A stretch of DNA of 32,000 nucleotides from an uncultured archaeon (GCA_964510585.1 CAZECW010000072.1:29166-61165), one strand, 5' to 3'. Positions 27,160-32,000 are shown, counted from the stretch's first letter. Notes: generated from the letters alone by a model not told the origin. A program made the numbers and translations.

Positions 27160-27376
27160 TTTTCCTTCACACACCTATTGGTCTATAGTGTTAATACTTG
27201 TTGCAAATTATTAGATGGGGAAATATCTCTTTTTAGACGAATATGTAACATAGTTAATGTCTTCTAGTTTTACATACTTTCTAGATAAAAAGTTTTCCCA
27301 AACTTGATACTTTAATTCGTAATATGACGAAATAAAAGAAATTTTTCATAAAAAGTCGAAAAAATAATCGCTTTAC

Positions 27377-27651
27377 AAAACCTTGGCGAGAAAGCTCCCG
27401 ACTTTAGTTGTGGGGATGAATCGCCAAAAAGCTTATTTGAAAGTAGGGTATATAAATAGTCGTTGGTAGCTGAAGGGTTTGGCTTGGGCTTAAGAGGCTA
27501 AACAAGACGCAGCCCCCATGAGGGTGCCAACATAGACGCCGTTCCCCTGAGGGAAGGGCGTGCTAACTGGGTGATGGCACACCCATTGCTTCGAAGGCTC
27601 CCAATGAGCCAGAAGCAAGAATCTCCCGACTTTAGTCGTGGAGAGTGTCAA
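27377..27651 (+). mobile_element. Non-autonomous IS200/IS605 derivative (275 bp), copy 1, with omegaRNA-like scaffold
   Basis: TTAC immediately 5'; AAAG plus left-end hairpin; GAAT plus right-end hairpin; terminal TCAA. No recognisable transposase or TnpB coding. Confidence 0.88.
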
Positions 27652-27680
27652 TCATAACAAAGACGTTTTGAAGGGATTTG

Positions 27681-27824
27681 ATGGGAAAAACATGCGGCGA
27701 ATGTTTCTATCACCGAAATGTGAGACCGGACAGAGTAAACATCTCACGAGATTATGTGTATTGTGAGTACCACGGAGATAACAAACAGAGAAACGGTACA
27801 TGCAGTTACTGGAGACCCGGTTAA
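27681..27824 (+). CDS. 47-aa Cys/His-rich microprotein (not in ORF track)
   Basis: MGKTCGECFYHRNVRPDRVNISRDYVYCEYHGDNKQRNGTCSYWRPG, with AAGGGA upstream. Confidence 0.65.
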   Translation: MGKTCGECFYHRNVRPDRVNISRDYVYCEYHGDNKQRNGTCSYWRPG

Positions 27825-28111
27825 TAATAACTCACGCCACAGCCCATAAAATGTATTAACAGTCACTAATATCTAAAAGGCAACTCAGCCCATAATAACC
27901 AATCCTAACCCCTACTCTTTATCTAACCCCCACTTTTCTATTTTTTCCCCTTGGAGAAGACTACCCCAAAAAAAGCTTCTCAAAGAGTTAGTAAATTTCA
28001 ATGGGAATTGGAGATTCTTCCAAACTTTTTAGGTTCACACAGTTCTCAGAAAGAAAAAAATTAAAGGAATACCCTCGTGTTAGGAGTGATCCCCACCTAG
28101 GGGAAATTTAC

Positions 28112-28386
28112 AAAACCTTGGCGAGAAAGCCCCCGACTTTAGTCGTGGGGATGAATCGCCAGAAAGTTTATTTGAAAGTATGGTATGTAAATAGTTGTTG
28201 GTAGCTGAAGGGTTTGGCTTGGGCTTAAGAGGCTAAACAAGACGCAGCCCCCATGAGGGTGCCAACATAGACGCCGTTCCCCTGAGGGAAGGGCGTGTTA
28301 ACTGGGTGGTGGCACACCCATTGCTTCGAAGGCTCCCGATGAGCCAGAAGCAAGAATCTCCCGACTTTAGTCGCGGAGAGTGTCAA
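28112..28386 (+). mobile_element. Non-autonomous IS200/IS605 derivative, copy 2
   Basis: Same TTAC/TCAA boundaries; about 11 substitutions versus copy 1 by manual comparison. Confidence 0.88.
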
Positions 28387-28504
28387 AATTTGTTGCTATT
28401 AACAGTTTTAAGCGATGATTTCTATAAATATTATATTTTTTATCTTTAAATCCTAACATTTTAAGATTTTTCCGATATTTTTCCTTAATTCCTACGATTT
28501 TTAC

Positions 28505-28553
28505 TGGAACAGTTGGCGAGACAAGTCCCGATTTTAGTTTTGTGGGGTGTCAA
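28505..28553 (+). mobile_element. Degenerate single-hairpin remnant with left-end-like 5' part and right-end terminus
   Basis: TTAC at 28501-28504, then ttggcgagacaagtcccgattttagttttgtgggg, then tgtcaa. Confidence 0.5.
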
Positions 28554-28835
28554 ATTTCATTAAAATTAGAGGGGGTAATGAAAGGGGCTTCAAAAGTGGA
28601 AACTTCTATTCTTTTGCGTAGGAAATATCTGGGTAAGGGTGGCTACGGATTCCAAAATACAGCGAATTGATGATGCCATAATAAGGAATTCTCATGAAAA
28701 CATTTATGTGAATTGTGAGACTTTAAGCTCCTAATGGTTTATAAGAAAAGTGAAAGATTTTTTATATATTTTGAATTATCTATTATCATTAATCGTTCTA
28801 GTAGTGAAATAGGTAATGTTTTGGTGGTGTCTTTT

Positions 28836-29960
28836 ATGGTTGAAGCCGATATTTATGAGAAGCTGAGAAAAATTATGAATGCTGGCACAGCGATTAAACT
28901 TCCAAAGCACAAGGCAACGGGTGAGATGCTCAGAGCTATTTTTAGTGAAGAGGAAGCTCGACTACTTACTGTTTTTGAGAAATCACAGCAACCTTTAAGC
29001 TCCGAAAAAATAGCCCAACTATCAGGGGTTCCAGAAGAAAAGGTGAAAAAAATTTTTGACGACATGGCTTACAAGGGCAAAGTGATTAAGGCAGGCAACT
29101 TTTATGTGCTGATGCCCTTTGTTCCCGGACTTTTTGAAGTATACTTCACCCATAACCGGGACGATCCCGAAAGGATGAGGAAGGCCGCAAAAGCTTACCG
29201 CGAATTATTCTATGCCGGGCACCCCTTCGAGCTAAGTGCAGGTGGCTACCCTCTCTACCGTGTGATTCCCTCTGTGGAGCCCACCGAAAAAATAATAGAA
29301 ATAAACAAACCAATTGAGGTGCAGCACCAGGTTTTGCCCTACGAAGTTTTAAGAGAATACCTCTCAAAAGCTAACCTGTTCGCGGTGGTTCCCTGCAGTT
29401 GTAGAAACGCAGCTAAACTAGCAGGAGAACCCTGTAAACGCACAGATGAAAACTTCTGTGTAACAACAGATTTTCTTGCAAAAAGCGTTTTAGACCAGGG
29501 AGTAGGACGCCAAGTCACCCTTGATGAACTGATGGAAATAATGAAGAAAGCTGAAGAAGCGGGACTAGTACACGAAACCATAAATATTCAGGACACTTCA
29601 GTGTTCATCTGCAACTGCTGTCCTTGCTGCTGTGGCTTTCTAAAATCTGTGAAGGAATTCCACAACTACAATGCAATAACAAAGTCTAATTTTGCTCCAC
29701 GGTGGAATGGTGACTTGTGCCAAAGGTGCGAAAAATGCATGGAAATATGTCCTATGGGAGCAATATTTCACCATTGGCCTCACTCAGAAGACGAATCTGA
29801 CGACATTATTATGATAAGGGAAGATCTCTGCATAGGTTGTGGGGTCTGCGCTTCTAACTGTCCGAATGAGGCTATCACTCTTGTGAAAGTTAGAAATGTT
29901 GTGCCCGTTAAAAGCCAAGCCGAGATGGAGGAAAAGTTTAGAGTGGCGAGGGCTCACTAG
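28836..29960 (+). CDS. 4Fe-4S ferredoxin-domain protein with N-terminal wHTH-like region
   Basis: CSCR, ICNCCPCCC, CQRCEKCMEICP and CIGCGVCASNCP motifs. The ORF opens at 28734; ATG at 28836 follows GGTGGTG. Confidence 0.88.
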   Translation: MVEADIYEKLRKIMNAGTAIKLPKHKATGEMLRAIFSEEEARLLTVFEKSQQPLSSEKIAQLSGVPEEKVKKIFDDMAYKGKVIKAGNFYVLMPFVPGLFEVYFTHNRDDPERMRKAAKAYRELFYAGHPFELSAGGYPLYRVIPSVEPTEKIIEINKPIEVQHQVLPYEVLREYLSKANLFAVVPCSCRNAAKLAGEPCKRTDENFCVTTDFLAKSVLDQGVGRQVTLDELMEIMKKAEEAGLVHETINIQDTSVFICNCCPCCCGFLKSVKEFHNYNAITKSNFAPRWNGDLCQRCEKCMEICPMGAIFHHWPHSEDESDDIIMIREDLCIGCGVCASNCPNEAITLVKVRNVVPVKSQAEMEEKFRVARAH

Positions 29961-31505: not shown

Positions 31506-31864
31506 TCAAGGTTTCAAAATTTTTTCAAGGCCCTGCTTGAGCCCCATCTGTTCTTGGTGTGTTTTGCCCTTTAAAAGTTTAGCTAAAGCATGTTCGAGTT
31601 CGTCTGGTTCCCATCTTCCATCCTTTTCTACAGTTGATTCAATTTCCCAAGTCTTATACAAATCGATTTTTCCGCCGATAATTCGGAACACTTTTCCAGT
31701 TATATGCCTCCCCTTATCACTTGCCAAAAAGGCGACCAGAGGTGACGCATTACTGGGGTCTAAGGGGTCAAAGTTTGGTTTCGCTGGAATTAGTTTCATA
31801 AATTCTGCTACCGGTGGGCTGGAGAGTGCAAGTTCCGTCCTTGCCAGTGGACTTATGCAGTTAC
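31506..31864 (-). pseudogene. C-terminal part of an SDR oxidoreductase gene interrupted by element copy 3
   Basis: The frame extends upstream of the annotated ATG as NCISPLARTELALSSPPVAEF, then MKLIP...PSNASPLVAFLASDKGRHITGKVF (SDR C-terminus), and breaks at the TTAC junction. Confidence 0.8.
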
Positions 31865-32000
31865 AAAACCTTGGCGAGAAAGCCCCCGACTTTAGTCGTG
31901 GGGATGAATCGCCAGAAAGTTTATTTGAAAGTATGGTATATAAATAGTTGTTGGTAGCTGAAGGGTTTGGCTTGGGCTTAAGAGGCTAAACAAGACGCAG
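31865..32000 (+). mobile_element. Non-autonomous IS200/IS605 derivative, copy 3 (truncated by window end)
   Basis: TTAC at 31861-31864; one difference from copy 2 over the 136 visible bp. Confidence 0.88.

Follow-up and report, generated by a model that had tools for sequence, protein, structure and literature searches.

A protein-free IS608-like mini-element of an Asgard archaeon that keeps a scaffold of the omegaRNA type, probably for use by TnpB supplied in trans

Analysis of a 32,000-nt stretch of archaeal DNA (the window, G000:C72:29166-61165) reveals three copies of a protein-free IS200/IS605 mini-element, or PATE, that descends from an IS608-like element and retains the 3' end of tnpB joined to the right end of its parent. 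It is likely that the retained segment serves as an omegaRNA scaffold for TnpB supplied in trans and that it aids the selfish homing of the mini-element. The anatomy and boundaries of the element, its parentage, copy number and empty sites, the presence of tnpA and tnpB in the same genome, and the covariation and repeated retention of the scaffold are established by the observations described below. The genome of the window (G000; C-numbers designate its contigs) comprises 3.78 Mb in 217 contigs and has a G+C content of 41.7%; it is compared here with a sister species (G004) and with sister genomes (L059, L058 and L063). Judging from the relatives of one gene in the window (28734-29960), which are 91-92% identical in Candidatus Jordarchaeia and 78-97% identical in Candidatus Freyarchaeota, the host is a hot-spring Asgard archaeon of the Jordarchaeia/Freyarchaeia group. 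Because the host is archaeal, promoters were considered by the logic of archaeal TATA/BRE elements, and a sigma-70 scan was set aside. A literature search found no paper that deals with both TnpB and either Jordarchaeia or Freyarchaeia.

Copies 1 and 2 are 275 nt each, differ at 11 positions, and both end in TGTCAA, whereas copy 3 is cut by the end of the contig. The three copies begin at 27377, 28112 and 31865, as the initial annotation had recorded. It had also placed TTAC before each copy, TCAA at the ends of both complete copies, AAAG and GAAT before the subterminal hairpins, four internal hairpins, and the 3' flanks of both complete copies; all of these were found in those places. The features of the window are as follows.

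27377..27651, + strand: copy 1, 275-nt protein-free IS200/IS605 mini-element (PATE); precise empty site in L059
28112..28386, + strand: copy 2, 96% identical to copy 1
31865..32000, + strand: copy 3, truncated by the contig end to its left 136 nt; right half at G000:C8:16990-17126(-)
27373..27376, + strand: TTAC target and left cleavage tetranucleotide of copy 1, the predicted TAM; TTAC joined to the right flank in L059
28108..28111, + strand: TTAC of copy 2
31861..31864, + strand: TTAC of copy 3; the same TTAC in L059 and L058, then unbroken gene sequence
27391..27415, + strand: left guide tetranucleotide AAAG (27391-27394) and left subterminal hairpin (27395-27415), ~90% identical to tnpA-bearing left ends
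27431..27456, + strand: tnpA-upstream region kept from the parent, with TATA-like boxes at 27431-27439 and 27449-27456, from alignment to the parental left end
27477..27503, + strand: hairpin S1 (GTTTGGC/GCTAAAC), an upstream extension of the scaffold, from folding
27506..27651, + strand: scaffold of the omegaRNA type, from homology to the tnpB 3' end plus right end, per-lineage folds and a covariance model
27506-27510 with 27645-27649, + strand: closing helix of the scaffold
27536-27561, + strand: hairpin S2
27569-27584, + strand: hairpin S3
27586-27618, + strand: hairpin S4
27619-27622, + strand: GAAT before the right hairpin
27623-27643, + strand: right hairpin
27648-27651, + strand: TCAA, right end of copy 1
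27652..27671, + strand: predicted guide of copy 1 (3' flank), assigned by position only; flank unique in the genome, with an orthologous empty site of TTAC plus flank in L059
28387..28406, + strand: predicted guide of copy 2, assigned by position only

The left and right hairpins have the same orientation and a near-identical sequence, and inverted terminal repeats are absent. The GAAT that precedes the right hairpin is the right guide tetranucleotide of IS608. The only coding capacity of the element is a 53-codon antisense stop-to-stop frame, and the part derived from tnpB is a decayed fragment. Two of the 11 differences between copies 1 and 2 (positions 198 and 227) do fall in hairpin loops, as had been noticed earlier; this is no evidence for structure by itself, and across the family the stems are not spared.

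The mini-element belongs to a repeat family far beyond chance. G000 contains 30 full-length BLAST matches, 29 of which passed a stricter filter and formed the set for flank analysis. Element ends are more numerous, with ~81 on the left and 69-71 on the right; when the right 146 nt were turned into a covariance model, 71 copies scored highly. A genome-wide count, one of the checks proposed in the initial annotation, therefore gives about 70-80 copies in G000 as a fair estimate of family size. The family is young, its members being 90-100% identical. TTAC precedes 27 of the 29 full copies, the other two having TCAC in one case and a 1-nt shift in the other; TGTCAA ends all 29, and the flanks are unique and mutually unrelated. 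The earlier description of a protein-free IS605-type element with IS608-like TTAC/TCAA ends is borne out by these termini. The element holds 90 of the 434 contig termini of G000 and is thus a main cause of assembly breaks, accounting for about a fifth of them.

Empty sites in related genomes, the subject of a second proposed check, were found for all three window copies. In L059, the TTAC of copy 1 runs straight into the right flank of that copy. At the site of copy 2, exactly 275 nt are absent in L059, L063 and L058, where TTAG or TTGG replaces TTAC. At the site of copy 3, L059 and L058 have TTAC followed by uninterrupted sequence. Such precise empty sites in sister genomes fix the boundaries of the element and reveal insertion without target duplication.

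Several features of the surrounding DNA were also observed. Copy 3 interrupts a gene for a short-chain dehydrogenase (PF00106) near codon 189/190. Of this gene, the C-terminal part lies on the minus strand of the window (31506-31864) and the N-terminal part on C8 (G000:C8:16422-17126), beside the remaining half of the element; L059 has the gene intact (308 aa), and paralogues in G000 are 51-54% identical. In the sister genomes, the flanks of copy 1 (window 27300-27720) do not adjoin each other. The orthologue of the original left neighbor of copy 1 adjoins another G000 copy (C212:36911-37186; region C212:36911-39406) at a similar TTAC-bearing junction. This arrangement is the pattern expected from recombination between two copies, which is suspected here. 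The reciprocal product would be marked by the sequence that follows the DUF92 gene in sister genome G042, and this sequence has no counterpart in the G000 assembly. A 47-codon ORF containing CxxC (27681-27824) begins 29 nt beyond copy 1 and has the same orientation, and in L059 a TTTATAAA box lies just upstream of TTAC at the empty site, indicating that the insertion of copy 1 moved the ORF off its old upstream region. Read-out from copy 1 may now matter for expression of this ORF. Finally, positions 28501-28553 contain TTAC and a 49-nt terminal-only micro-element with one decayed hairpin, a left-end-like 5' side and a TGTCAA end. The micro-element (28505-28553) resembles a fusion of left and right hairpins, as in the ~52-bp PATEs of Dyall-Smith et al. 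Since decayed counterparts occupy the orthologous site in L059, L058 and L063, it is an old relic. A second terminal-only element is located on G000:C51 near 9942.

The parentage of the mini-element is evident from G000 itself, which encodes Y1 transposases (PF01797) and TnpB (PF07282, PF01385). On C169, C7 and C162, a left end that is ~90% identical over the first ~60 nt of the mini-element is followed by an intact TnpA of 129-145 aa and the start of tnpB; the Y1 protein after the shared left end at these three loci matches PF01797 with E = 9e-35. On C8, C54, C152 and C45, the 3' end of tnpB is followed by a right end matching that of the mini-element. The C8-type tnpB is the closest type; its middle is unassembled in G000, where it is represented by fragments only, and the C7 copy is frameshifted. 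The first ~85 nt of the mini-element align with the parental left end to about 10-15 nt before the tnpA ATG, and element positions ~112-275 align to the end of tnpB, starting at the RuvC-III motif and running past the stop codon through the right end. The remnant derived from tnpB thus comprises the last ~165 nt of the gene and the right end. In agreement with the initial annotation, these alignments document an origin by deletion of tnpA and most of tnpB in which the region upstream of the tnpA start was kept, and the cognate parent genes, for which it had recommended a search, are both present in G000 with matching ends.

A related second element (C81:5075-6840) has a decayed tnpA, an intact 424-aa TnpB (PF01385 and PF07282) and an almost identical right end. 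Its TnpB gene (G000:C81:5075-6346; L034:1318-2589, minus strand) is the sole fully assembled TnpB gene with matching ends. In C81 TnpB, a glycine is aligned to the RuvC-II glutamate of a solved TnpB (IVLGRL versus INVEFL), and the RuvC-I Asp, the zinc-finger cysteines and the RuvC-III Asp are all present. TnpB clades described as 'RuvC-II rearranged' are predicted to stay active (Altae-Tran et al. 2023, PMC10691335). The glycine of C81 TnpB matches these clades; like the fragmentary state of the C8-type tnpB and the frameshift on C7, it counts against the use proposed for the scaffold. Protein-free scaffolds of the C81 type were also matched at C107:7045-7233, C58:28383-28557, C21:210-398 and C32:13043-13225. 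In total, the G000 assembly contains five matches to the zinc-ribbon domain of TnpB versus about 75 orphan scaffolds.

The same relationships bear on the possibility that the repeat is not a transposon derivative at all, but a structured DNA repeat of the REP/BIME kind that has a host function and depends on a domesticated RAYT-type Y1 enzyme. The family shares with such repeats a high copy number, an abundance of hairpins and the presence of Y1 transposase relatives in the genome. However, its ends share about 90% identity with the ends of genuine tnpA-tnpB elements and its interior is decayed tnpB, its insertions are polymorphic between sister species and one of them splits a gene, and the Y1 proteins are located inside IS elements instead of being encoded by a single-copy host gene. 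A REP/BIME-like origin is therefore highly improbable.

The scaffold is the part of the mini-element for which a function is proposed, and its helices are real. A covariance model (R1) built from 15 G000 copies matches relatives in 9 of 11 genomes of the class, where scaffold-like matches both adjoin full tnpB genes and occur in protein-free contexts. Base pairs were counted in 33 distinct sequences from 9 genomes. In this alignment, which was fitted to the model and hence leans toward structure, standard pairs fill 90.2% of cells, compared to 69.9% after shuffling (none of 500 shuffles reaches the observed value) and 40-51% with slid partners; the covariation score is 0.385, compared to 0.143 after shuffling and at most 0.082 with slid partners; and 43 of 47 pairs have changes on both sides. 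A covariance model had also been among the checks first proposed, and the covariation across these 33 relatives answers it in favor of structure. In the closing helix, GACGC (27506-27510) pairs with GTGTC, which only the last two letters of the element, AA, follow; pairing in this helix reaches 89% over the same sequences. Folds made separately for each lineage (the G000 mini-element, the C8-type parents, the C81 type and several G004 sequences) place S2, S3, S4 and the right hairpin at the same positions, despite the fact that the sequences of S2 and S4 are unrelated between lineages. Since these folds were made independently, they are free of the bias of the model-fitted alignment, and support across lineages is strong. 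A cross-lineage MAFFT alignment (A1) was dropped for pair counts because it misaligned the arms of S2 and S4; it was replaced by the folds and the covariance-model alignment. The stem of S1, outside the scaffold proper, is kept with changed pairs in one related G004 sequence (L070) and is absent from the shorter G004 mini-elements. Rfam families at gathering thresholds are absent from the window, and a permissive scan of 27350-27700 gave only chance-level matches (E = 2.5 and 7.6).

A structure that is conserved between lineages need not be in use in each copy, and the mini-element may be a passive relic: a PATE mobilized by TnpA in which the 3' segment of tnpB is a mere leftover of the deletion, neither transcribed nor used by TnpB and irrelevant to the success of the family. 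The mutations within the G000 family are in line with this explanation. Among ~75 copies, private mutations number 17 in 112 paired positions versus 7 in 68 unpaired positions, at a family identity of 90-100%, and are thus not depleted in stems; shared variants in stems are only about 2-fold depleted. In a family this young, such counts say little either way. Individual copies show no sign of purifying selection since insertion. In addition, the putative TATA box is degenerate in half of the copies, and the stems of S2, S3 or S4 are weakened in several G004 mini-elements.

The pattern of deletion argues against a passive relic. G004 has its own mini-element families of the same IS group, of about 206, 266 and 350 nt, which have different deletion end points (examples among loci L066-L080 are L067:195-401, L066:165-430 and L080:193-540), and in all of them at least ~111 nt, running from S2 to the right end, are preserved. 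G004 also has a complete tnpB-only element (C141:27312-29037). The TnpA of IS608 requires only a subterminal hairpin, a guide tetranucleotide and a cleavage site (PMC3201880), about 40 nt of the block from S2 to the right end. At least four independently deleted families nevertheless retain this block whole, and the retention of an extra ~70-130 nt beyond the termini that TnpA needs indicates a use for the scaffold. Elements reduced to their termini are rare, with two scaffold-less micro-elements versus about 75 scaffold-bearing copies in G000. Furthermore, in the G000 family, which is free of coding constraint, S2 and S4 exceed their counterparts in the coding parent in stability, and U-G pairs of the parental closing helix are replaced by C-G. 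Given these observations, it is unlikely that the scaffold is a passive leftover, and its use as an omegaRNA by TnpB remains the preferred explanation.

Such use would require that the scaffold be transcribed, and the mini-element retains a candidate promoter region. The TATA-like box at 27449-27456 of copy 1 is TATATAAA, and its counterpart in copy 2 is TATGTAAA. The box is homologous to the parental TATATTGA, which is centered 26 nt before the tnpA ATG, the spacing expected of a leaderless archaeal mRNA. This supports the view that the old tnpA promoter region would now face the scaffold. The box is also the most variable stretch of the family: only 14 of 29 copies have it in perfect form, the two most diverged ones lack it, and in the ~206-nt G004 mini-elements its homologue lies too near S2 for a complete scaffold. 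The second TATA-like box (27431-27439), 16 nt upstream, is better conserved. The region upstream of tnpA may thus act as a promoter, with either box as the candidate. Two hot-spring runs, labelled metatranscriptomic but probably DNA, shared 5% of the sampled words; they contained only C81-type right ends, with a 59-nt insertion and from other organisms, and have no bearing on expression of the window copies.

Taken together, the data suggest the following series of events. Internal deletion of an IS608-like tnpA-tnpB element generated a mini-element that kept the left end with its guide tetranucleotide and hairpin, the tnpA-upstream region, and the last ~165 nt of tnpB with the right end. TnpA, the Y1 transposase made by the few autonomous copies, would move the mini-element as single-stranded DNA and insert it 3' of TTAC without target duplication. 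A transcript that begins in the retained tnpA promoter region may traverse the scaffold and extend into the flank by about 16-20 nt, and the resulting omegaRNA could be loaded by TnpB made elsewhere in the genome. Its sole target would be TTAC followed by the flank, that is, the scarless donor joint left after excision. A cut by TnpB at this joint would be repaired by recombination from a filled sister copy, so that the mini-element is kept or spread by homing in trans, in line with the model of Meers et al. (PMC10055086). Transcription, the identity of the promoter, loading of TnpB, the role of TTAC as TAM, and cleavage are the steps that are predicted from sequence.

The guides themselves provide information on what such a system would target. 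Each predicted guide is the 3' flank of its own element, and its TTAC-adjacent match is the site vacated by that element, as is seen in the sister genomes. The initial annotation had proposed a dispersed guide library for a trans-encoded TnpB. Such a library would arm the nuclease against many targets, in defense or in the control of host genes, rather than promote self-retention. About 75 different 3' flanks would indeed amount to about 75 different guides. When 75 flanks of 20 nt were scanned against G000, however, most second matches were of 16-17 nt and of the chance level. Two were 20/20, one in a paralogous or strain-variant segment (C154) and one in a 52-nt repeat (C75), and only one of them directly abuts TTAC. 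This match, which favors a library as far as it goes, belongs to the copy at C12:8680-8955 (region to 8975), the guide of which is found 20/20 directly after TTAC at C154:2120-2143. The C154 match (C154:2116-2321) continues for 198 nt at 98% identity to C12, and its left side is different; the C154 site could be a paralogous segment or a strain variant, and as such a potential unfilled target in the same assembly. The geometry is that of homing (PMC10055086) and not that of acquired spacers, and neither acquisition machinery nor an array is involved. With no systematic second targets among the 75 flanks and with guides that match their own empty sites, a guide library is very unlikely. In published work, such guides serve the homing and retention of their element (PMC10055086), and the same role is proposed here.

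It is conceivable, although rather doubtful, that the mini-element has gone further and is a hyperparasite of its parent, with a re-tuned scaffold that competes for TnpB and TnpA and with copies that reshape the genome as recombination substrates and outward promoters. The hyperparasite reading draws on the stronger S2 and S4, on the Watson-Crick closing helix compared to the parental wobble, and on about 75 copies versus five TnpB-domain matches. For the reshaping of the genome, it draws on the non-syntenic flanks of copy 1, the gene split by copy 3, the position of copy 1 29 nt upstream of a small ORF, and the displacement of the ancestral TATA box.

The concept of a stand-alone omegaRNA element is already published (Meers et al., PMC10055086; Altae-Tran et al., PMC10691335), and no new principle is involved. 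What is notable is the host lineage, the copy number and the clean natural controls. The family appears to provide a well-delimited stand-alone omegaRNA element in an archaeon of the Asgard group, with empty sites, identified parents and independent families in a sister species. It would be a convenient system for asking whether a TnpB with glycine at the RuvC-II position can use guides in trans, how small a working scaffold can be (about 111 nt are kept in the shortest family), and whether guide-only elements gain an advantage in retention. In practical terms, the family is behind about a fifth of the contig breaks in G000 and interrupts genes.

PATEs are protein-free derivatives of IS200/IS605 elements and were first named in Haloquadratum walsbyi (PMC3119063). 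Like those of H. walsbyi, the mini-element has near-terminal palindromes, lacks inverted terminal repeats, causes no target duplication, arose by internal deletion of an IS605-type element, forms a homogeneous high-copy family, and has terminal-only versions of ~50 nt, here the relic at 28505-28553. Unlike those PATEs, it resides in a hot-spring Asgard archaeon instead of a haloarchaeon and has IS608-like TTAC/TCAA ends. The 2011 paper (PMC3119063) predates the omegaRNA, and the 3' segment of tnpB was not read there as a guide-RNA scaffold. The mini-element displays every sequence-level feature of a PATE as well as of an omegaRNA-bearing IS608-like element.

PATEs 'often encode omegaRNAs' that require TnpB in trans (PMC10055086), and stand-alone omegaRNAs have been shown to work in trans (PMC10691335, citing Altae-Tran 2021). 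The closest likeness is to the PATE-like elements of Geobacillus stearothermophilus (Meers et al., PMC10055086), which are also mobilized, protein-free and with the omegaRNA kept, share a genome with effector-bearing copies that have the same ends, take the guide from the flank, and have an expected role in homing and retention with TnpB in trans. The cases in PMC10055086 and PMC10691335 are bacterial and have RNA-seq or biochemical support, whereas the archaeal family is known from sequence alone; it also differs in its large excess of copies and in a likely effector TnpB with glycine at the position of the RuvC-II glutamate.

The termini are those of IS608 of Helicobacter pylori (PMC3201880) in having TTAC as the left cleavage site and target, TCAA as the right cleavage site, AAAG 5' of the left hairpin and a left hairpin foot 19 nt from TTAC, and the autonomous parent likewise has tnpA followed by tnpB. 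In contrast to IS608, the window copies are gene-less, the foot of the right hairpin lies 8 nt from the cleavage point, compared to 10 nt in IS608, and the host is an archaeon. The Halobacterium sotRNAs (PMC4615843) provide an archaeal precedent for a non-coding RNA region at the 3' end of tnpB. The sotRNAs are sense-overlapping transcripts within an intact tnpB of the IS1341 type, while in the mini-element this region stands alone and is recognized in DNA.
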